Source: Minisyncoccia bacterium (GTDB taxonomy: Bacteria; Patescibacteriota; Minisyncoccia; Phycocordibacterales; UBA1006). From it: 63,455 nucleotides of DNA. The DNA lies in assembly GCA_044229075.1 (NCBI GenBank), contig JBGATS010000005.1, forward strand, positions 1-63,455, given 5' to 3'. The notes under the pieces were generated by a model. The model saw nothing but the letters and a program-made list of their open reading frames with translations. It ran no database searches and had not been told where the DNA came from. This document shows, piece by piece, positions 1,533-63,455 of the stretch. Numbering within the stretch: the stretch's first letter is position 1; every line of letters begins with the position of its first letter. A program made the translations under genes and the position numbers.

Positions 1533-2808
1533 AAATAAGTTCTGCTTTTTTGCTAGTAAATTGCTCCCAGCGATCAAGAATAATCGTTGCGAAAATAGGA
1601 TCTATTTCTACACCTCGCCATTTTCTGTGTAGTTGTTCGCATGCGATCAGGTCACTACCGCTACCCCCGAAACAGGAAAGTATAATATGTCCCGGAGCGG
1701 AGCATCTCCGAAGCGGACGCTCGCTCAGTGAAACAGGTTTTTGGGTCGGATGGACGTATTCTTGTACGTTATCTCGTTTTATGAGCCACAGATCAATCAT
1801 GTCGAGAATATCTTCATGTGCTTGATTGCCAGTACCGATTTCTGTATTTAATACTTCACCAAGATTGTTGATAGTATTATTTAGATATGGTTTTCCCATG
1901 GTTCCATAAAGACACACTTCGTGCATACGATTAAATGCAATCTTGTTGGTCACATTACTGTTATTTTTGACCCATAAGAGTAGTCTTTGAAATTTTATCT
2001 TCGCATTACTAAATAATCCCTGTATCATACCTATATACCGAGCGTCAGCCCAGTAAAAGAAGTGTGTACTTGGTCCGCTGTATGTTTTTGCAACCTCAAT
2101 ACTTTTTCTAAGAAATTCCTTAAAGTTTGCATCAGTTTTTAGATCATCCTTTTTAGAATAACTTCCTCCGTAGTTTTGACTACCTGTTACGCCAGAATTG
2201 TACGAGATACCTATATTGTAGGGACTATCACTAATAACCATGACTGCATGCTCGTCTCCCATTAGGGTTTTCACCATCTCTATATTTGTAGAGTCTCCTA
2301 CAAGAAGTTTATGTTCTCCAAGTTTCCAGACTTGTCCGAGTTTTACTCTTGGTTTAATTGTTTCTTGGATAGCTTTATTAAGATTAAAGTCATCCTCAAC
2401 AAGCTCTACATCATCAAACAAGAATTGAAGTTCCGCATCCTCAAATCCAACATCCAGGAGCATTGGTAGACTCATTTCTTTTAAAAGTTCGGAGTCCCAA
2501 GATCCAATATTTTTGTTTAATCTTAGGTTAAGTTCTTTTTCTTCATCAAGAGATAGTTCTCGAGAAGGTACCATACAACTTATCTTTTCCACTCCTAAGT
2601 CAGCATATATTTTAATTCGTTGCTCACCACCGATAATAGTGTTTTTTCTTGTCCCTGTATTTAAGACTACGGGGACTACGGTTCCAAATTGAGTAATAGA
2701 TCTTTCAAGATCCTCTCGCTCATTTTGTTCTAGTTTCCTCGGATTATATCCGTTTTTAATAAGTTCAGAGACTTTGCGTTCTGATACTGTCCATGTGATT
2801 TTTTGCAT
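1516..2808 (-). CDS. ParB-like N-terminal domain fused to a DNA methyltransferase
   Basis: N-terminus NGYNPRK...GTVVPVVLN...IIGGEQR is ParB/Srx-like. C-terminus has SDSPYN (DPPY variant), HPTQKPV and CFGGSGS (motif I). Confidence 0.85.
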   Translation of the reverse strand: MQKITWTVSERKVSELIKNGYNPRKLEQNEREDLERSITQFGTVVPVVLNTGTRKNTIIGGEQRIKIYADLGVEKISCMVPSRELSLDEEKELNLRLNKNIGSWDSELLKEMSLPMLLDVGFEDAELQFLFDDVELVEDDFNLNKAIQETIKPRVKLGQVWKLGEHKLLVGDSTNIEMVKTLMGDEHAVMVISDSPYNIGISYNSGVTGSQNYGGSYSKKDDLKTDANFKEFLRKSIEVAKTYSGPSTHFFYWADARYIGMIQGLFSNAKIKFQRLLLWVKNNSNVTNKIAFNRMHEVCLYGTMGKPYLNNTINNLGEVLNTEIGTGNQAHEDILDMIDLWLIKRDNVQEYVHPTQKPVSLSERPLRRCSAPGHIILSCFGGSGSDLIACEQLHRKWRGVEIDPIFATIILDRWEQFTSKKAELIYESTT

Positions 2809-2922
2809 ATGTTTAAAAATAATTAAAAAGTTAATAGGCTAAACATATCTAGCTAGTTATATGTCTATACTGTCTATTATCTATTTTTAGGAAATTAAAT
2901 ATAGACGCATAAAATAGTAGAA

Positions 2923-2963
2923 AATAACAAAACACCCTTATAAGATAAGGGTGTTTTGTTATT
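2923..2963. terminator. Perfect 19-bp inverted repeat, probable intrinsic terminator
   Basis: AATAACAAAACACCCTTAT-aag-ATAAGGGTGTTTTGTTATT, lying between the end of 2998-4197 and the start of the methylase operon. Confidence 0.65.
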
Positions 2964-2997
2964 CGTATAACTGCCATTTTATACGTTTTTTATATCT

Positions 2998-4197
2998 TTA
3001 AAAAATGTTGTTAAATATAATATATGCGTCAGTTGCTTCCAGGATTGGTTTTTTGTTTTTAGGGTGTATATTTTCAATGTTGTTTCTTTTTAAAAAACCT
3101 TGGAATGAAGTTGAATTTCTTCCGACATTCAGTCTGTAGTCTTTTCCAAATCTATTAGATTTTGGAAACTTTTTTTCAAAGTCACTTATTTTTATCCTTG
3201 TATCACCTTCAGGAAAATGTTCCACAATTCTTCTAAGTATTTTTATGTATTTAGGTTCTTTTATTTGATATGATAACTCTCCTTTATTATAATGATGAAT
3301 GCGGTTATTTTTTACAAAAAATACTTTTTTACTCACGTGTTCAATAGTTTCGCCTTGATTATTATCTTGAATATAGAAATGAATTCTTTGTAAATGGTTA
3401 GTAATATCTGTTTTTGGTATAACACTTAATTCTGCAGTTTTTTCAGTTAATATACCTACATAGTCATTGTATTCTTGTTTCGTGTGTATTTTTTCGAATA
3501 TCTTTGTATTTAAATACTCCATTGATCTTTTTTCTGAATACTCGTCTGTATTAATTTTTGGTGCAGATGGTTTTAGGTCAAATTCCTCAAAAAGGGTATT
3601 CTTTTCTTTCAAGAAATCCAATGACTGAGTAATTGATTTTGTATATCTTTTTGTATAGAAATCTTCTTTATTAACAAAATCTTCTATATCTTTAGATATA
3701 GACATTTCAACACCACTTCTTTTTCCTTGTTTAAATAAAGTCTGAACATTTTTTTCAAATCCCAGGTCTATAACTTTTTGTACAATGTCACCTAAATCCA
3801 TACTTATATCACCATAATCAATCTTAAGAGGTGATAGATTTATATCAGATGAATTACCATTTAACTTAGTCTTAATATCAAAAAAGTCCCAATTTATTTC
3901 TTTTTCATTAAAAATGCCTAATGCTTTTGTTTTTTTCTCTAAAGTTGTAGTTAGTTTCTGTATTTTATCTATAATACTTTTTTCTAGTGTATTAAGATCA
4001 TTCTTTTCAGAAAGAAAATTATTAGTCTCTACTGTTATTCCTGAAACTAATGTAGCTCCGTCTATTTTTAAGAAATTCATATAATCACAAAAACTGACTA
4101 AGAATTCACGATCTGTTTGTGATAATATAACACGCTCGTACAGTGCATGTTCTTTTTGTAAAAGAAGACTACTTTCCATATGTATCAATCCTAGCAC
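2998..4197 (-). CDS. Hypothetical protein (AT-rich, 399 aa)
   Basis: Long uninterrupted ORF with no recognised motif. The C-terminal ~90 aa might be a winged-helix domain (speculative). Confidence 0.7.
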   Translation of the reverse strand: MLGLIHMESSLLLQKEHALYERVILSQTDREFLVSFCDYMNFLKIDGATLVSGITVETNNFLSEKNDLNTLEKSIIDKIQKLTTTLEKKTKALGIFNEKEINWDFFDIKTKLNGNSSDINLSPLKIDYGDISMDLGDIVQKVIDLGFEKNVQTLFKQGKRSGVEMSISKDIEDFVNKEDFYTKRYTKSITQSLDFLKEKNTLFEEFDLKPSAPKINTDEYSEKRSMEYLNTKIFEKIHTKQEYNDYVGILTEKTAELSVIPKTDITNHLQRIHFYIQDNNQGETIEHVSKKVFFVKNNRIHHYNKGELSYQIKEPKYIKILRRIVEHFPEGDTRIKISDFEKKFPKSNRFGKDYRLNVGRNSTSFQGFLKRNNIENIHPKNKKPILEATDAYIIFNNIF

Positions 4198-4391
4198 TTT
4201 TTTATATTTTTGGCATTTTTTGGCATTTGAGGTACCGACTCACTTGCCTTAATCCACCGCTTGTATTTTTGTTAATATACCCTTATAATACTTACAATCA
4301 CGGGTACTTAACTCATGTACACCGCCAAGACAATTTAGTATCGGACACGACTCACGTGTCAAAATGTCTATTTAAGAGTTATGCTTAGAAC

Positions 4392-4850
4392 ATGTTTAAT
4401 CTATTCAAAAAACAACCAATTAAGCTCGTAAAGCACCAGTACAAAAATTTGGTTATTAAACTTCCTGTAAATTGGAAATATGAACTCGAGGAAGGGGACC
4501 TAGAAGCTTGTTTTGATCCAAAGTCTCAAAGCACTCTACGACTTCATGTAATCAAAGCTGTTTCTCAGAAAGATGAGACTTCGGAAGAGAGTATAAATTC
4601 TCTAACTGGTAGCAATCCTTATGTTATTACACTCAAAGGATATCTCTCAACCAAACCTACTTACAGTAATACAACTGAGAGTGGTAAAAATATTACACTC
4701 ATCACTTGGAAATTAATTAACATAATTGGTGATGAAAAAATAATTGCCGTCTTGACATATACAGTTTTGTCAGAGGAGAAGGATTCAAATCAAGAAAAAG
4801 GAATGATTGCCATGATTGAAAGTTCCCTGAACAATTCTGAGCTGGTATAG
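4392..4850 (+). CDS. Hypothetical protein
   Basis: 152-aa ORF followed by a bidirectional hairpin. Confidence 0.7.
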   Translation: MFNLFKKQPIKLVKHQYKNLVIKLPVNWKYELEEGDLEACFDPKSQSTLRLHVIKAVSQKDETSEESINSLTGSNPYVITLKGYLSTKPTYSNTTESGKNITLITWKLINIIGDEKIIAVLTYTVLSEEKDSNQEKGMIAMIESSLNNSELV

Positions 4851-4963
4851 TGCATATTTTAAAATATATACCCGACCCACATGCCTCGGCTTAGTCTCTG
4901 AAGTTATCCCAAACAGTGCTTACGGTGTCTCACCACTCTGGTACTGAACCCGCATGGCCCGCA

Positions 4964-4990
4964 AAAAAAGAGTCTCATTGACTCTTTTTT
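4964..4990. terminator. Bidirectional intrinsic terminator
   Basis: AAAAAAGAGTC-tcatt-GACTCTTTTTT between convergent genes. Confidence 0.7.
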
Positions 4991-5001
4991 ATATTCATAT
5001 A

Positions 5002-5406
5002 TTAATATTTTTTTAGCCATTCATTCATCTGTGAAATTTCTGCTGTTTGCGCTTTGATAATTCCTTCAGCGAATGATTTTAACTCTGGGATAACACTTGG
5101 ATCCTTGAGGAGCATGTTTGCCATATCGACAGCTCCTTGGTGATGAGGAATCATTTCGGTAATGAATGACTTTTCGAGTTCTGAACCAACCTTTCCTTGC
5201 ATATTGGCAGTCATGTCCATCATCACGCCATGCATAGAAGTATTTTGGTTCATATGAGTATCTCTCATCATAGATCCGTCTGACATCTGGTGATATCCAT
5301 TATGCATACGCATTGGACGTTTATCATTTTTACGAATGGTTACACAGATAGTTATGAGTAACAGGATTCCTAAAACAATCGAAAGCAGTTTATAATTGAT
5401 AGTCAT
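5002..5406 (-). CDS. DUF305 (CopM/ferritin-like) protein with N-terminal TM/signal and a Met/His-rich linker
   Basis: FITEMIPHHQGAVDMA and IIKAQTAEISQMNEW are the DUF305 signature. Confidence 0.85.
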   Translation of the reverse strand: MTINYKLLSIVLGILLLITICVTIRKNDKRPMRMHNGYHQMSDGSMMRDTHMNQNTSMHGVMMDMTANMQGKVGSELEKSFITEMIPHHQGAVDMANMLLKDPSVIPELKSFAEGIIKAQTAEISQMNEWLKKY

Positions 5407-7355: not shown

Positions 7356-8111
7356 ATGGAACAAGAATTTCGAACAACGTTTATCCCGAAAAAACCACTG
7401 GTACAGACACCAGTATCTTCGGGTACACCAGTATCGCGTCCAATCGGGATTGTTTTTGTGATTTCACTGATAATTTTTATTATAAGTATCATAATGGGTA
7501 CTGGAGTATTTCTTTATAAATCATATCTTGAAAAAGAAGTTGCAGATCTTGTTGTTAAACTAGAAAAATTACAAGAAAATATTGACCCGAACGCAATACG
7601 TGAGTTTTCGTTAATGGACAAACGGTTAAAGAATGCTGAGACGTTAATTAATCAACACGCAGTTATCTCTCCATTGTTTTCAGTATTACGTTTGACAACG
7701 CTTCCTACGGTTCGTTATTCAAAATTTGATGGAACATTTGGGGAAAATCGAGATCTACAGGTAACCATGTCGGGGGAATCAGATAGTTATCGATCTATTG
7801 CACTGCAATCTCAAACACTCGCAAAAAATGCAAATCTCAAGAATACTATTTTTTCTAACTTTGTAGTTACTCCGAAAGGTCGTGTTGCGTTTGATGTTTC
7901 TTTTTCTATTCCTGTGAGTGATCTATCTTTTGCAAAACACACTGATCAGGTTACTGACGCAGATAATATAATAATTCCTCCAGTTACTTCAATAATAGAT
8001 GAGCAATTACCACAAACTACTACCGGAGAAATAACTACCGAAGAAGCTGCGACTGTTAATCAATCAAGTGATACTTTTGATGGAGTAAATACTCCTCAAA
8101 AAACTCAATAA
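7356..8111 (+). CDS. PilN-like fimbrial assembly protein
   Basis: One TM segment followed by a coiled coil and a ferredoxin-like PilN region. Follows pilM. Confidence 0.65.
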   Translation: MEQEFRTTFIPKKPLVQTPVSSGTPVSRPIGIVFVISLIIFIISIIMGTGVFLYKSYLEKEVADLVVKLEKLQENIDPNAIREFSLMDKRLKNAETLINQHAVISPLFSVLRLTTLPTVRYSKFDGTFGENRDLQVTMSGESDSYRSIALQSQTLAKNANLKNTIFSNFVVTPKGRVAFDVSFSIPVSDLSFAKHTDQVTDADNIIIPPVTSIIDEQLPQTTTGEITTEEAATVNQSSDTFDGVNTPQKTQ

Positions 8112-8131
8112 TACAACATCTTTGCACACTT

Positions 8132-8683
8132 ATGAAAACCATTCTTTCTATTATCATGATTTTGGCATCAATCGGGGGATTCATTCTCTATATTGTTCCA
8201 ACGTATACGGATGCACAGGCAGTCAACCAGAAAAAGGTTGAGTATTTAGAGTTACTCGCTAATGGGCGACAATTGGAAGAACGACGTGATAAATTATTAC
8301 AAATTTATAGTAGTGTGAGCCCGGCAGATCGCGACCGACTCGAACGGATACTTCCAGCTAATCCAGATAATGTGAAACTCATTCTTGAAATCGAAGGACT
8401 TGCAAAAGCTCAGGGACTCAACCTTCAAAACGTAAAGATCAAGGAATCTTCAGAAGATCAAAAAAATCAAAATAATAGAACTACGCAACGAATAAGTCCT
8501 GACATTGGGTCACTCACATTGGAATTTACCATTGTTGGACCGTATCCTGGGTATGTGTCATTTATTAATTCACTCGAGAAAAATCTCAGAATTATGAATG
8601 TTAAAAAATCATCATTTATTGCTCCTGACGATAAATCAAATTATCAGTTTCAAACTTTGGTCGAAACGTATTGGGTAAAATAA
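8132..8683 (+). CDS. pilO: PilO-like pilus assembly protein
   Basis: N-terminal TM, coiled coil, LP..PD, GPYPGYVSFINSLEKNLRIMNV. Third gene of the pilMNO operon. Confidence 0.75.
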   Translation: MKTILSIIMILASIGGFILYIVPTYTDAQAVNQKKVEYLELLANGRQLEERRDKLLQIYSSVSPADRDRLERILPANPDNVKLILEIEGLAKAQGLNLQNVKIKESSEDQKNQNNRTTQRISPDIGSLTLEFTIVGPYPGYVSFINSLEKNLRIMNVKKSSFIAPDDKSNYQFQTLVETYWVK

Positions 8684-57822: not shown

Positions 57823-57891
57823 CTCAGCAGATGATTTTGTAAAATAAGAACCACCTGACAAAAGGGTGGTTTTGTGATATATATAAAAAAT

Positions 57892-59649
57892 ATGATAAAT
57901 CCAAATCCTGCAAAAATAGAAGATCTTCTGAGGTTGTCAGCAAAATATGAAGTTCCAAGGTATCAAAGACAATATACTTGGGGAAAATCAGAAGCTTTAG
58001 AATTTCTTGATGATTTAAAAAGTTTTGGAAATGAGAATTCCCAAGGAAGCTTGTTTTTAGGTACGGTTATTTTTGATGTTTCTGAGCTAAATAATTCTAT
58101 TATTAAAATAGTTGACGGACAACAAAGAATTACAACAATCTTAATTCTTTTAATTGCATGTAGAGAAGTTGCGAAAAGGATTAATTCTGTATCTTTTGCT
58201 CAGGAAATACAAAATAAAATTACGTTTATATCAAGAACTGGAGAATCTGTTGGTCCAAGATTAATAACATCTGAATCCATTAAAGATATTTTTAGTTATA
58301 TTTCTAAATCTGATTGGGGTGGAGTCTTTGTTGATAAGTTAAATAATAGAAGTATTAAAAGACAAGTTAATAAAATAAAACCAATTTATGATTTCTTTTT
58401 TAAAGAAATTCAAAATTTCAATCATAATGAACTAGAGAGGTTTATTAATGCTGTTTACGATTCTTATGTTGTAAGAATTGATATTGAAAATGAATTAGAA
58501 GCATTTAGTATTTTTGAAAGAACAAATGCGAGAGGGGTTGATCTTGAAGCTTCTGATTTACTTAAAAATTATCTATTCCAATCAGGTATTGAGGGATTGG
58601 ATGAAACATGGTCTCAAATAATTGAGAATTCAGGAGGAACAATCTTGAGAATGTTAAAGTATTTTTATGTTTCCAAAAAGGGTTATGTTAGTAAGTCGAA
58701 TTTGTATAAAGCTATAAAAAGTTATTCAACAGAAATAGGGCCATTAAATCTTGTTAATGAGATTGATGAATTTTCTAGATTCTATTCAATAATAAGATCT
58801 GGCGAGATAAGTCAACTCCAAGATTATTTAAAATTAATAGGCTATATTACACTACCTCAAGATCAAGAAAAGATTCAAAAATTATTTAGCAGTATTGAAG
58901 CTCTAAGATTGTTTAAAGTAACACAGGTATACCCTTTAATTTATTCTGCACTAAAGTCTTTCATCAAAAATGGTCATGATAATAATACAGATTCAAAGAA
59001 ATTAATTAATTTCTTTGAAAAATTAGAAAAATATCATTTCGTTAATAATGCAATATGTGAAAGGGTTGGAAATGAGGTTGAAAAGTTATATTCTGATTAT
59101 TGTAAATTTTTCTCAGAAACAAATAATTTTATTGGAACCTTAAATGAACTAACTGTAAGCCTGTCTGAAAAAATTGCATTAAAAGATGAGTTCGTTTCAA
59201 GATTTAGTGACATTTCATATTCTTCAGATTCAATAGCTTTAATATCTTATATATTTGATCGTTTGAATAATTACGGTGTTTTTCCAGCGTCTTGGATCAA
59301 AATATTTAATCCAAGTGAGAAAGTTACGAGAAGAGCTCATAATATTGAACATATTTTCCCGCAGAATCCAGTAGGTGGTATTAATTCAGATATTTCTGAC
59401 TATATTGATAATATTGGTAATTTGATTGTAATTAGCTTTAGAACCAATTCTAGTCTAGGAAACCTCTTACCTGAAGAGAAAGTTAAAAAGCTTGAAAATG
59501 AATTATTTCCACAAATTCAAAATCTAGATTATGTTAGAAAATTTATTGAAAAATATAAAGAATTTTCACCTAATTGGAATAAAGATATTATCTTAAAAAG
59601 ATCTGAAGATTTAGCAGTTGAGTCTTATGATAATGTTTGGAAGTTTTAG
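57892..59649 (+). CDS. DUF262 + DUF1524/HNH protein (GmrSD-family modification-dependent restriction enzyme)
   Basis: VPRYQRQYTW, IVDGQQRITT, FERTNARG (DUF262); IEHIFPQ and IGNL...NSSLGN (HNH). Markedly AT-rich. Start is probably the ATG at 57892. Confidence 0.85.
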   Translation: MINPNPAKIEDLLRLSAKYEVPRYQRQYTWGKSEALEFLDDLKSFGNENSQGSLFLGTVIFDVSELNNSIIKIVDGQQRITTILILLIACREVAKRINSVSFAQEIQNKITFISRTGESVGPRLITSESIKDIFSYISKSDWGGVFVDKLNNRSIKRQVNKIKPIYDFFFKEIQNFNHNELERFINAVYDSYVVRIDIENELEAFSIFERTNARGVDLEASDLLKNYLFQSGIEGLDETWSQIIENSGGTILRMLKYFYVSKKGYVSKSNLYKAIKSYSTEIGPLNLVNEIDEFSRFYSIIRSGEISQLQDYLKLIGYITLPQDQEKIQKLFSSIEALRLFKVTQVYPLIYSALKSFIKNGHDNNTDSKKLINFFEKLEKYHFVNNAICERVGNEVEKLYSDYCKFFSETNNFIGTLNELTVSLSEKIALKDEFVSRFSDISYSSDSIALISYIFDRLNNYGVFPASWIKIFNPSEKVTRRAHNIEHIFPQNPVGGINSDISDYIDNIGNLIVISFRTNSSLGNLLPEEKVKKLENELFPQIQNLDYVRKFIEKYKEFSPNWNKDIILKRSEDLAVESYDNVWKF

Positions 59650-61036: not shown

Positions 61037-61672
61037 ATGAAATTTCCAAAAGTAACACAATTGGCAGCAAGCACTGCAGATCAAGAACTAAAAGCGGAAC
61101 TTGATCAATTGCTTAAACTTGCAGCAGACGTAGTCGCAAAAATCATTGAAGTCATTGGTAAGATTTTCATCAAAACAAATACCGTTATCAATGGCACACA
61201 ACTTGCCGAAGGCAGTAGTACTATTGAACGTCAATTGGAAAACTTCAAAGAAGTTGCCAAAGCACGTGGCATCACGAATGTTTGGACTGGTGATAACATC
61301 ACCAGATGGTTCCCAAACGAAAAGGTTTCAAAAACCATTGCTGGGCCCAGCCGATTATTACGTTTTATGAAAAGTATTACACACGCAAAAATCATTGACG
61401 GCTGCAAGCAGTTAAATGCTTACCAGGAATATGATTTGAGTGATGGAATCGAGCGTGCAACTGCATTGGTAGTTGCGGGTGAATTAGATAAAAAAGATAA
61501 TACAGGCATTATTATTTATCTGACAAACTGCAAAGACGGCACTCCGTGCAGGCTGGGCGTGTGGCGTTACGGTGACGGTGAGTTGCGCCTCGGTGTTAGC
61601 AAGGTCAATCCAGACTATGAGTGGAACGCTGGTTACGGTGTTCTGTGCAGCAACGAAAACTTGGATGTATAA
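61037..61672 (+). CDS. DGR target (variable) protein
   Basis: The 3' end contains the VR matching the TR at 61971. VR-encoded CRLGVWRYGDGELRLGVSKVNPDYEWNAGYGVLCS is consistent with a C-type-lectin-like DGR display fold (fold inferred). Confidence 0.92.
   Translation: MKFPKVTQLAASTADQELKAELDQLLKLAADVVAKIIEVIGKIFIKTNTVINGTQLAEGSSTIERQLENFKEVAKARGITNVWTGDNITRWFPNEKVSKTIAGPSRLLRFMKSITHAKIIDGCKQLNAYQEYDLSDGIERATALVVAGELDKKDNTGIIIYLTNCKDGTPCRLGVWRYGDGELRLGVSKVNPDYEWNAGYGVLCSNENLDV
61545..61654 (+). repeat. DGR variable repeat (VR)
   Basis: 97/110 identical to the TR; all 13 differences are at TR adenines (8 A>G, 3 A>T, 2 A>C). Confidence 0.97.
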
Positions 61673-61684
61673 TCCTTTGTATTG

Positions 61685-61728
61685 GACCCTTTGTAGCTTT
61701 GATTCTTGAATCTCGGCTGCAAAGGGTC
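61685..61728. other. Post-VR hairpin/cruciform (candidate retrohoming recognition element)
   Basis: GACCCTTTGTAGC...GCTGCAAAGGGTC (12/13) enclosing the inner palindrome GATTC-tt-GAATC, 30 bp after the VR. Confidence 0.65.
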
Positions 61729-61735
61729 TTATTTT

Positions 61736-61744
61736 TGTTATAAT
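61736..61744 (+). promoter_or_regulatory. Extended -10 promoter, candidate start of the TR/DGR RNA
   Basis: TG-T-TATAAT right after the post-VR hairpin, about 225 nt upstream of the TR. Confidence 0.5.
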
Positions 61745-61970
61745 GAATGTACGAATGAATACGAAATCGGCTACGGCTTGTTTCTTCATCGTAGGAGTTG
61801 TCACGAACGGAATGTAAACAGGGTTTCTATTTACAGTGTTTCAAGACAAAGCTTGATATAAAAAATTTTTGTTGGTGGATGGAATTAGAGAATTTTAATG
61901 ATTCCGAATAAGATACAGTCATTTTCGTGTATACGAAAGACAGTGACAAGGACGGTTTCATCCACAAGAT

Positions 61971-62080
61971 CGTGCAGGCTGAACGTGTGGCGTAACGATG
62001 ACGGTAAGTTGAACCTCAATGTTAACAAGGTCAATCCAGACAATGAGTGGAACGCTGGTAACGGTGTTCTGTGCAGAAAC
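61971..62080 (+). repeat. DGR template repeat (TR)
   Basis: AAC/AAT-rich copy of the VR (32 A in 110 nt) lying between the target gene and avd/RT. Confidence 0.97.
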
Positions 62081-62089
62081 ACAAATTTT

Positions 62090-62114
62090 CTCTCCTATTT
62101 TTTATATAGGAGAG
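62090..62114. other. Hairpin immediately 3' of the TR, overlapping the avd stop
   Basis: CTCTCCTAT-N7-ATAGGAGAG followed by TTTTT. Confidence 0.55.
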
Positions 62115-62458
62115 TTTTTCGTTTCCAGTGTTTTTTCAATTCCTTTTTTCCATCCGCCCAACATTCGTCCAATTTCGTCCAGATCAGCAGAGATTTTTAT
62201 ATACTGATTGTTTGCCATGATTTTTCCTTCCCATGCGACAGATAGTAGAAACTTTACCATATCCAATTGTCCTGTTGCACGCACGATGGTATTTATTTTC
62301 TCAGTTGGGTTTTGATATGTCGCTTGATACACATAGGCAAGCATGTTCAAGAAATGTTGATCGATATTATTGCCCAGTGTGTATCGTGATGTTTTCGGAA
62401 AATTTTTCAAAATCTCCATCCATGCAATATAAGCGATTTTAGATTTTGGTAAAATCAC
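62102..62458 (-). CDS. avd: DGR accessory variability determinant (Avd-like four-helix bundle)
   Basis: FPKTSRYTLGNNID...LDMVKFLLSVAWE...LDEIGRMLGGW is the bAvd/four-helix-bundle signature; located between TR and RT on the opposite strand. Confidence 0.88.
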   Translation of the reverse strand: MILPKSKIAYIAWMEILKNFPKTSRYTLGNNIDQHFLNMLAYVYQATYQNPTEKINTIVRATGQLDMVKFLLSVAWEGKIMANNQYIKISADLDEIGRMLGGWKKGIEKTLETKNSPI

Positions 62459-62471
62459 TGGTAATTTCGCC

Positions 62472-62482
62472 GGGGGGGGGGG
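62472..62482. repeat. G11 homopolymer between the avd and RT starts
   Basis: Eleven consecutive G in a low-GC region. Confidence 0.9.
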
Positions 62483-62495
62483 TACTATTATTGGA

Positions 62496-63455
62496 ATGAA
62501 AAAAATTTTGAGTCATGTATACCAAGATATCATATCAATGGAAAATTTGCTTGCCGCATGGCAGGAATTTAAAAATGGAAAACGCAGTAAGCCAGATGTT
62601 GCAGAATTTGAGCGAAATTTAATGGATAACCTATTTGATCTACAGGAACAATTATTGAATTATTCATATCAACACAGCGGATATAAAGCGTTCAGAATTA
62701 ACGACCCAAAACCTCGTGACATTCATAAAGCATTAGTGCGTGATCGGTTAATGCACCATACTATCTATCGGCAATTCTATTGGTTTTTTGATCGAACATT
62801 TATTTACGACTCGTATTCATGCAGAATTGGTAAGGGAACTCATAAAGCAATCAATCGTTTCAAGGAATTTTCCAGAAAATGTTCGCGTAATAATACTCGG
62901 ACTTGTTGGGTTCTGAAATGCGATATCAAAAAATTCTTTGCAAGTATTGATCATGAAATACTCAAGCAGATTTTGCGGAGCCATATTGATGACAGTGATA
63001 CGATTGGATTATTGGAAAATATTATTGATAGTTTTTGTACAAGTGGCAACCCACATAGTGGTTTGCCACTTGGTAATCTGACTTCTCAATTGCTCGTAAA
63101 TATTTACATGAACAAGTTTGATCAATTTGTAAAACATCAACTGAAACAAAAATACTATATTCGGTATGCAGATGATTTCGTATTTCTTGCAGAGAGTAAA
63201 AATGAATTAGAGAAATTATTGCCGTTGATACGGAAATTTTTATGGAAATCGTTACGACTAGAATTACACCCTGAAAAGGTGTTCATCAGAACAGTTGCAT
63301 CAGGGGTAGACTTTTTAGGGTGGGTACATTTTGAGAAGCATAGAGTATTGCGGATGAGTACAAAACGTCGTATGATTCGTAATTTAAAGGACACTCAAGA
63401 ACTAGAGTCCATAATAGCATATAGAGGGATGTTGTCTCATGGGAATACGTGGAAA
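62496..63455 (+). CDS. DGR reverse transcriptase, partial (runs off the right edge)
   Basis: Open frame from ATG 62496 (MKKILSHVYQDIISMENLLAAW) with KPRDIHKA..RDR, SYSCRIGKGTH, CDIKKFFASIDH, GLPLGNLTSQ (63060), YADD (63165-63176) and GVDFLGW. Absent from the ORF track because no stop lies in the window. Confidence 0.96.
   Translation, partial: MKKILSHVYQDIISMENLLAAWQEFKNGKRSKPDVAEFERNLMDNLFDLQEQLLNYSYQHSGYKAFRINDPKPRDIHKALVRDRLMHHTIYRQFYWFFDRTFIYDSYSCRIGKGTHKAINRFKEFSRKCSRNNTRTCWVLKCDIKKFFASIDHEILKQILRSHIDDSDTIGLLENIIDSFCTSGNPHSGLPLGNLTSQLLVNIYMNKFDQFVKHQLKQKYYIRYADDFVFLAESKNELEKLLPLIRKFLWKSLRLELHPEKVFIRTVASGVDFLGWVHFEKHRVLRMSTKRRMIRNLKDTQELESIIAYRGMLSHGNTWK

Follow-up and report, generated by a model that had tools for sequence, protein, structure and literature searches.

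The 3' end of contig JBGATS010000005.1 from a Minisyncoccia bacterium carries an element that is best explained overall as a genuine chromosomal diversity-generating retroelement (DGR) of the Patescibacteria lineage, organized as a target gene with variable repeat (VR), template repeat (TR), avd and reverse transcriptase (RT), and recently active; we put the probability of this reading at about 85%. The stretch examined, called the window below, was the whole 63,455-nt contig (38% GC). As the first-pass annotation of this DNA had proposed, the element is a DGR by every mark that could be tested: the TR/VR divergence is adenine-specific and lies at the 3' end of an open reading frame (ORF), an Avd protein and an RT of the DGR clade are encoded, the repeats end in an IMH/IMH* pair (IMH, initiation of mutagenic homing), and a hairpin stands downstream. 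The gene order is target(+)-TR-avd(-)-RT(+), with avd pointing towards the TR and away from the RT gene.

61037-61672, plus strand: target gene of an unnamed family; 211-aa ORF with N-terminal helices and an alpha/beta domain
61545-61650, plus strand: VR, codons 170-205 of the 211-codon target ORF, ending at the IMH boundary
61971-62076, plus strand: transferable core of the TR, with 29 adenines, as given by the VR/TR alignment
62102-62458, minus strand: avd, 118 aa from GTG 62458, matching Avd profiles
62496-63455, plus strand: DGR reverse transcriptase, 320 aa from ATG 62496, its ORF open at the contig end

Adenine-specific divergence of the repeats

The VR (61545-61654) and the TR (61971-62080), offset by 426 nt, form a gapless alignment, and all 13 mismatches over these 110 nt fall on TR adenines (8 A>G, 3 A>T and 2 A>C). 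With 32 adenines among the 110 nt of the TR, the hypergeometric probability of adenine-only mismatches is p = 1.3e-8. This confirmed the alignment described in the first-pass annotation, and the ten amino-acid changes listed there were all exactly right in the target reading frame (TR to VR: N174G, N178Y, D179G, K182E, N184R, N186G, N188S, N194Y, N200Y and R205S). Two of its counts needed adjustment. Twelve of the 13 mismatches stand as products of mutagenesis, but the thirteenth (62077 A / 61651 C, R205S) is a difference of the IMH/IMH* boundary; and although the TR has 32 adenines as counted, only 29 of them lie inside the transferable core, where 12 of 12 mismatches are at TR adenines. The 12 mutagenized positions span 61556-61634. 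Nine AAY codons of the TR occupy the mutagenized zone, codons 174-200, and the 28 adenines in codons 171-200 would allow ~5e15 protein variants. Within the window there was no further copy of the repeat and no second VR for the TR.

Related elements and recent activity

The target has 11 close homologues with 55-91% identity, and their contigs yielded a close set of seven distinct elements of the same layout: the window (W), L001, L016/17, L005-7, L010, L018 and L019. In L018, neither avd nor RT was found downstream of the TR within its contig. A distant set, L021-L024, was picked by RT similarity alone (63-66% identity) and has the layout seen in the window. VR/TR differences were adenine-specific in all seven close elements, with p values from 5e-5 to 2.5e-14, and the VR/TR mismatches of L021-L024 were likewise adenine-specific.

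L001 comes from a sister strain ~96% identical to the window. Its TR differs from that of the window by two substitutions, 62005 T>C and 62050 G>T, neither of them at an adenine, and both are mirrored in the L001 VR at 61579 and 61624. The remaining 12 differences between the window and L001 VRs are all at TR-A positions. Outside the VR, ~4 of 508 nt of the target gene differ (~0.8%), together with one codon deletion, compared with ~13% in the VR. Because the TR substitutions were copied into the L001 VR, TR-to-VR transfer took place after the two strains split. This comparison is the strongest evidence for recent activity obtainable in this analysis, and it bears out the earlier statement that the element is or recently was active.

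Sequencing runs were used as Logan contigs and unitigs, which carry no strand information. Unitigs break at the VR borders 61540, 61556 and 61568 in several samples (X3, X6 and X8), which is suggestive of VR variation; contigs aligned to the VR were mostly TR copies.

Two of the close elements have damaged RT genes: the L005 RT (7449-8345) has an internal deletion of ~41 aa, and the L019 RT (4645-5181) is truncated at ~183 aa. Despite this damage, their VRs carry 14-20 adenine-specific differences. L005 and L019 may be decaying elements, or their targets may be served by another RT copy.

The IMH boundary and the hairpin after the VR

61651-61662, plus strand: IMH-like boundary CAACGAAAACTT, encoding the conserved SNEN and complementary to leader 61863-61874
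62077-62088, plus strand: IMH*-like TR tail AAACACAAATTT, the TR counterpart of the VR IMH
61685-61728, plus strand: post-VR hairpin with T-run and 21-bp arms, conserved and covarying

When the VR/TR alignment is extended to 118 nt, its last four differences fall at alignment positions 107, 111, 112 and 116, which are 61651, 61655, 61656 and 61660. These four are the same in three of the seven close elements (W, L001 and L016), and two further elements share 107, 111 and 112 in the same register. Since the boundary differences recur across elements, they represent the IMH/IMH* distinction and not mutagenesis, and this includes R205S. The C-terminal peptide SNEN is thus conserved because it is dictated by the IMH DNA element.

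The hairpin announced after the VR is present at 61685-61728. It is nearly invariant among the seven elements, with 18 pairs that are 100% paired, three of them with compensatory change. It is also kept behind the DGR-less family members L002, L008/L011 and L020, so it is a property of the target gene. The hairpin is certainly terminator-like and ends the target gene; judged by position, it is a probable counterpart of the stem-loop that follows the IMH in the DGR of Bordetella phage BPP-1.

Orphan target-family genes, at L002 6001-7952, L008 5821-6456 and L020 1443-1955, have no TR, avd or RT nearby. All three keep the IMH-like SNEN-coding sequence along with the downstream hairpin. As they keep the IMH, such genes could be served in trans, and on their sequence they are candidates for diversification in that manner.

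Reverse transcriptase, Avd and the G tract between them

The YADD motif reported for the RT was confirmed, and LGNLTSQ (motif 4 of the DGR type, [ILV]GxxxSQ) and the upstream catalytic Asp were found as well; all are intact up to residue 320. The best PDB match of the RT is 8ub7 (133.5 bits), and group II intron and 'retron-type' RTs reach no more than 59 bits. The alignment with 8ub7 places I181 and Q187 (IGSLTSQ) and D215 and D216 (YMDD) as described for the Bordetella phage enzyme bRT, and because these four residues match that description we identify 8ub7 as bRT. The RT also matches PHROG 1423 with 364 bits. Its relatives number at least 8000 clusters at E <= 1e-30, the best being 61-71% identical, and among the best matches the few with a source name are Patescibacteria. 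Judged by match scores, 133 bits for bRT against <=59, the nearest relatives of the RT are not the group II intron or retron RTs, as had been expected of a DGR.

The gene described earlier as Avd-like is a real avd. Its product scores 63.1 bits with PF22296 (cut-off 40) and 74.4 bits with NF033474 (cut-off 80), is full length from GTG 62458 against both profiles, and matches PHROG 3206, 'Avd protein of DGR', at E = 5.5e-18. Its implied placement in one series with its neighbors did not hold, however: it is read from the minus strand, unlike the TR and the RT gene.

A tract of G residues lies between the two divergent genes.

62472-62482, no strand assigned: G11 tract, in the 37-nt gap between the avd (GTG 62458) and RT (ATG 62496) starts

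The tract varies among the elements: G11 in the window, G12 in both L016 and the sister strain L001, G7 in L005, and a long run in L019. Translation from an ATG at 62516 on the minus strand would pass through the tract. Of five related loci examined, L005 alone has this ATG in frame with avd; in the other four it is out of frame, and neither G11 nor G12 brings it into frame. The tract could be a slipped-strand switch, or merely a shared element of the 5' untranslated region.

In Logan assemblies from a source-like run and a second sample, the last ~550 nt of the RT gene (62907-63455) are covered 2.3-2.7 times as deeply as the flanking unitigs, and the contig breaks within the RT because of this raised depth. 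The contigs of several relatives likewise end inside the RT. These features suggest near-identical RT 3' halves that are common either to several loci in the genome or to co-occurring strains in the community.

A different origin of the locus would be that the repeats are an ordinary duplication kept alike by gene conversion and that the RT comes from a group II intron or retron. The top NCBIfam match of the RT is a group II intron RT model, at 149 bits far below the cut-off of 300. Against this origin, the mismatches are confined to the adenines of one copy in 11 independent elements, an avd adjoins, bRT is by far the best RT relative of solved structure, and an Rfam scan returned nothing besides tRNAs, with no intron RNA or retron RNA family. 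We therefore rejected the duplication reading on the adenine-only mismatches and the adjacent avd, and the intron or retron identity on the low NCBIfam score and the much better match to bRT; that the element is not a DGR is extremely improbable. More deserving of attention is the idea of a recently inactivated relic, whose VR records past activity and in which either the RT is damaged beyond the contig end or the G tract puts the avd start out of frame. Several features make present function less certain. By comparison with L005, the RT lacks ~17 C-terminal residues, its ORF leaving the contig at residue 320, so it is incomplete in the assembly; the damaged RTs of L019 and L005 stand beside VRs that are still adenine-diversified; should ATG 62516 be the real avd start, the gene may be silenced by the G11/G12 tract; and within-population evidence of VR variation is no stronger than the unitig breaks described above. 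The description of the element as intact-looking is accordingly right in that its parts are present and its motifs kept, but it passes over an RT cut by the contig end and the G11 tract between avd and RT. We nevertheless consider a relic unlikely, given that Avd is full length from GTG 62458, that the RT motifs are intact to residue 320, that two strains only ~4% apart show TR changes reproduced in the VR, and that leader/TR RNA is present in metatranscriptomes.

A conserved, structured leader upstream of the TR

The ~300 nt between the target stop codon and the TR are ~80% conserved, compared with an identity of only ~60% among the target proteins. The following features were assigned in this region and just beyond the TR.

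61736-61744, plus strand: extended -10-like box TGTTATAAT, a putative promoter for the TR RNA; first positions of RNA unitigs are 61755, 61777 and 61840
61751-61854, plus strand: 5' domain of the TR-RNA leader, consensus helices 2-6; helices 5 and 6 comprise 13 pairs with compensatory change
61863-61874, plus strand: primer-like strand AAAUUUUUGUUG, pairing with IMH* 62077-62088 and better with the VR IMH 61651-61662
61875-61886, plus strand: strand b of a stop-like duplex, GUGGAUGGAAUU, pairing with 61954-61965; 12 pairs, 5 compensatory
61890-61904, plus strand: 5-bp stem-loop of the consensus structure
61905-61913, plus strand: A-rich unpaired stretch CGAAUAAGA of the consensus structure, invariant
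61914-61945, plus strand: stem-loop SL2, which closes the module; 12 pairs, 2 compensatory
61954-61965, plus strand: strand a of the stop-like duplex, partner of 61875-61886, abutting the TR on its upstream side
62090-62114, plus strand: 9-bp hairpin and T-run, within which the convergent avd reaches its stop codon; terminator of the TR RNA

An RNAalifold consensus of seven sequences contains 30 compensatory pairs. Over the whole structure, 98.4% of cells are paired, compared with 43-51% in slid controls, and changes on both sides of a pair number 30 compared with 6-11. For the core structure the corresponding values are 98.9% compared with 40-47%, and 10 compared with 0-2. The stop-like 12-bp duplex was recovered by RNAduplex in 10 of 10 loci, in unrelated sequences, with dG from -12 to -24 kcal/mol. 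Handa et al. locate an Avd-binding stem-loop directly past TRs, and the hairpin at 62090-62114 is possibly its equivalent. A pairing of leader GTGTTTC (61836-61842) with GAAACAC of the TR tail was also considered and was rejected, as it showed no covariation. Searches with a 24-nt leader pattern gave no match in viral contigs and three chance matches in metagenome contigs of JGI. A 115-aa ORF at 61898-62245 crosses the TR; ORFs of this kind have been deposited by gene callers as 'proteins' (P0075 and P0106), which appear as false family members in profile searches.

Unitigs of the leader and TR were found in three metatranscriptome runs from two studies and jointly cover 61755-62041. They support transcription of the leader and TR; the 225-nt region upstream of the TR is conserved and transcribed, and covariation supports its structure.

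Run X8: metatranscriptome unitigs over leader/TR 61777-62041 and over the target body 61091-61540
Run X24: metatranscriptome unitig over leader 61840-61972; no other coverage of the locus
Run X25: metatranscriptome unitig over leader 61755-61924; no other coverage of the locus

For tgt, avd and RT there was no unitig coverage in runs X8, X24 and X25. The X24 leader unitig runs into Illumina adapter sequence 2 nt beyond 61972, at the TR 5' edge, and indicates a recurrent fragment end there. This end may reflect processing, an RT stop product or chance.

A primer-like strand that matches the VR boundary

We then considered the 12-mer at 61863-61874. In 10 of 11 loci its best pairing with the TR tail is in register with the end of VR/TR identity. 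In a shuffle test, the best match started exactly one base past the last VR/TR identity in eight of 10 loci (seven with the VR match, L023 with the TR match). With the VR IMH, the 12-mer forms 10-11 Watson-Crick pairs plus one G-U of 12, as against 8-10 with the TR IMH*; in each close locus the shuffle p was ~0.001. The 3' end of the leader and the first VR-specific bases read GUUG and CAAC in the window group, AUUG and CAAU in L010 and L019, and CUUG and CAAG in L021, L023 and L024. Thus, leader NUUG covaries with VR CAAN, and the TR does not follow, staying AAAC or TAAC in L010, L021 and L023. As a control, the primer strand of BPP-1 (Sp 47-56), which was defined by experiment, pairs 10 of 10 with VR 118-127 and only 6+1 with TR 118-127. 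Naorem et al. 2017 (PMC5703328) reported that the RNA primer pairs more extensively with the IMH than with the IMH*, which explains directionality. Because 61863-61874 shows this published preference for IMH over IMH*, we place the primer strand upstream of the TR.

According to Handa et al., cDNA synthesis in BPP-1 is stopped by a duplex at the TR 5' edge together with a stem-loop and two adenosines, and the priming nucleotide stands just ahead of this stop duplex on the same strand. By analogy, we lean on balance towards a template RNA that would be a circular permutation of the BPP-1 DGR RNA, with its primer and stop module 5' of the TR. In this arrangement the BPP-1 order of primer strand, stop strand b, stem-loop and A-rich stretch is kept, and a hairpin joins it to stop strand a and the TR. 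An RNA ending right after the IMH* would also explain how avd can lie antisense immediately past the TR. We found no description of the permuted order in the accessible DGR literature, and it is absent from the survey of Handa et al.

The permuted order would act as follows. The TR would be transcribed as a stand-alone non-coding RNA of ~360 nt, from ~61751 to the terminator hairpin at 62090-62114. RT and Avd would copy the TR into cDNA with random bases opposite adenines, priming at or beside G61874 and copying from G62076 leftwards. The RNA primer, still joined to the cDNA, would pair with the VR IMH at 61651-61662 and so select the target. The cDNA would then replace 61545-61650 of the target gene, and up to ~20 codons (nine of them AAY) on two beta-strands and a loop of a small soluble protein would be rewritten.

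A conventional RNA would instead be a read-through transcript, antisense to avd, with its priming elements 3' of the TR; the upstream region would be promoter and leader plus the 'upstream strand' of the stop duplex, as in the survey of 207 DGRs by Handa et al. That survey found Avd-binding stem-loops just downstream of TRs and pairing between upstream and downstream strands, with DGRs of the Candidate Phyla Radiation (CPR) included; a 9-bp hairpin does follow the TR of the window, and the primer-like duplex has few covarying pairs. However, the hairpin past the TR has a T-run and contains the convergent avd stop codon, no RNA unitig extends beyond 62041, and both strands of the 12-bp duplex abutting the TR 5' end lie upstream of the TR. 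Published work recognizes the primer by its complementarity to the VR IMH; here the strand with that property also sits upstream, at 61863-61874, and covaries with the VR in L010, L021 and L023. We consider a conventional order possible but less likely. The permuted order has its own difficulties. The primer duplex is AT-rich with only two covarying pairs; it is not the RNAduplex optimum in most loci, a register-specific test being needed to single it out; and L022 and L024 fit the primer rule poorly. The RNA model comes from seven close and four distant loci, with the structure derived from the same sequences, and the contigs of the RNA runs are strandless and could stem from DNA contamination. 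A wider reading would combine a permuted template RNA throughout the Patescibacteria 'TR-(avd)-RT' lineage, a terminator right after the IMH*, a primer that guides the cDNA or is copied into the VR boundary, and an intracellular scaffold that is neither a recognizable C-type lectin (CLec) nor an immunoglobulin (Ig) fold; to this combination as a whole we assign slightly less than even odds.

The target protein

Profile searches of 1.84 billion representatives placed the target in a family of 118 clusters, all small proteins. Neither the target nor 60 family members had a Pfam match, the target had no NCBIfam or PHROG match, and the alignment of 60 family sequences, used as a profile against the PDB, matched nothing. 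A hydrophobic segment of transmembrane strength occurs in only four of 129 family sequences, one of them lipoprotein-like, and 125 of 129 are without signal peptide or transmembrane segment. The earlier remark that the 211-aa target has no obvious signal peptide therefore extends to nearly the whole family. The target probably acts inside the cell as a variable binding protein, although this location is read from the lack of export signals alone.

AlphaFold2 gave a confident model of the target (pLDDT 89.7, pTM 0.84) with two N-terminal helices followed by an alpha/beta domain, and six helices overall. In this model the VR is carried by strands 169-177, 183-189 and 201-205 and by the loop 190-200. 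The diversified residues alternate along the strands (174; 184, 186 and 188), so they would lie on one face of the sheet. The first-pass annotation had called for structure prediction to choose between CLec and Ig folds, and the model matched neither. Foldseek against PDB and BFVD gave nothing significant (best E = 0.02, TM-score <= 0.41), and no DGR variable protein was among the matches. Several C-type-lectin domains (CTLDs), animal and viral, recur among the weak matches; there was no Ig match in Foldseek, and the model is alpha/beta rather than an all-beta sandwich. Thus, the target is neither demonstrably CLec nor Ig, and on the model a very divergent CLec-like topology is possible. A domain-only model (residues 78-211) had a pLDDT of 68, compared with 90 at full length, and its fold search was uninformative. 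Because truncation made the model worse, the N-terminal part belongs to the fold.

A 239-aa protein encoded at 53438-54157 matches two distant target-family members, P0046 and P0073, over its first ~62 residues (66% identity). It has a different C-terminal domain, which ends in ...GGFWFGLEGFECDWYVDGCLLCFCDEEL, and there is no TR for it in the window. For this second candidate target, hhalign against the family showed no C-terminal homology. The sequences suggest a common N-terminal module that may be joined to different diversified domains.

Comparison with known systems

The element resembles the BPP-1 DGR (mtd-VR / avd / TR / Sp / brt) in several respects. Both have adenine-specific VR/TR divergence at the 3' end of the target gene and homologous Avd proteins, and their RTs align over 290 residues with catalytic Asp residues and IGxxxSQ conserved. 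In both, the VR ends at an IMH/IMH* boundary followed by a hairpin, the primer strand matches the IMH better than the IMH*, and a 12-bp duplex at the TR 5' end is accompanied by a stem-loop and adenosines. In contrast to BPP-1, avd of the window lies on the opposite strand, between TR and RT, the TR RNA ends at a terminator right past the TR, and the primer/stop-strand module appears 5' of the TR, where BPP-1 has a 3' spacer. The target of the window is a soluble 211-aa protein with no CLec match in sequence or fold, and the element is chromosomal, whereas in BPP-1 the target is a phage tail fibre and the element resides in a phage.

Wu et al. 2018 (PMC5758913) described an architecture B3, 'TR-(avd)-RT', and a separate clade of CPR DGRs, and Roux et al. 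2021 (PMC8144416) assigned CPR DGRs to DGR clade 2, with targets typically lacking membrane segments or known domains. The element belongs to this known and abundant type. It agrees with it in gene order, orientation, host phylum and a target without transmembrane segment or known domain, and differs from it in nothing of kind. The statement that DGRs are abundant in CPR is borne out by the published B3 architecture and by the thousands of CPR DGRs catalogued. The idea of a cytoplasmic target is not new; it is already a published question for CPR DGR targets (PMC8144416), and Roux et al. left open whether these are genuinely non-membrane proteins.

With the variable proteins of CLec fold (Mtd, TvpA, AvpA and TaqVP), the target shares a C-terminal VR over beta-strands and a loop, AAY codons at exposed, alternating positions, and an element order, beta-alpha-alpha-beta-beta-beta-beta, that resembles a CTLD. 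It differs from them in that none is a significant match to it (Foldseek E >= 0.02, TM-score <= 0.41). The VR motif of the target family, CRLxVWRxDxGxLxLxVxxVxPDxEWxAGxGVL-SNEN, defines a family that is not in Pfam.

The element thus adds one more verified, recently active DGR to the thousands catalogued. The two strains 4% apart, with TR substitutions copied into the VR, constitute a natural experiment, and the small, soluble and well-modelled target offers a tractable case for an intracellular role of CPR DGR targets. If the permuted RNA is true, the structurally defined priming and stop elements of BPP-1 are modular and can be reordered. Under the same condition, complementarity of the primer to the IMH would be a general rule, with which priming sites could be located in uncultured DGRs and retargetable mutagenesis tools designed.

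Neighboring genes

Beside the DGR, an islet between mreC and tgt (57874-59649) holds a GmrSD type IV restriction gene in the window. In L001, the same islet (2667-4630) holds four other genes: a Ser_hydrolase, two unknowns with a faint zeta-toxin match, and a 48-aa ORF. The mreC-tgt interval is a small swappable islet.

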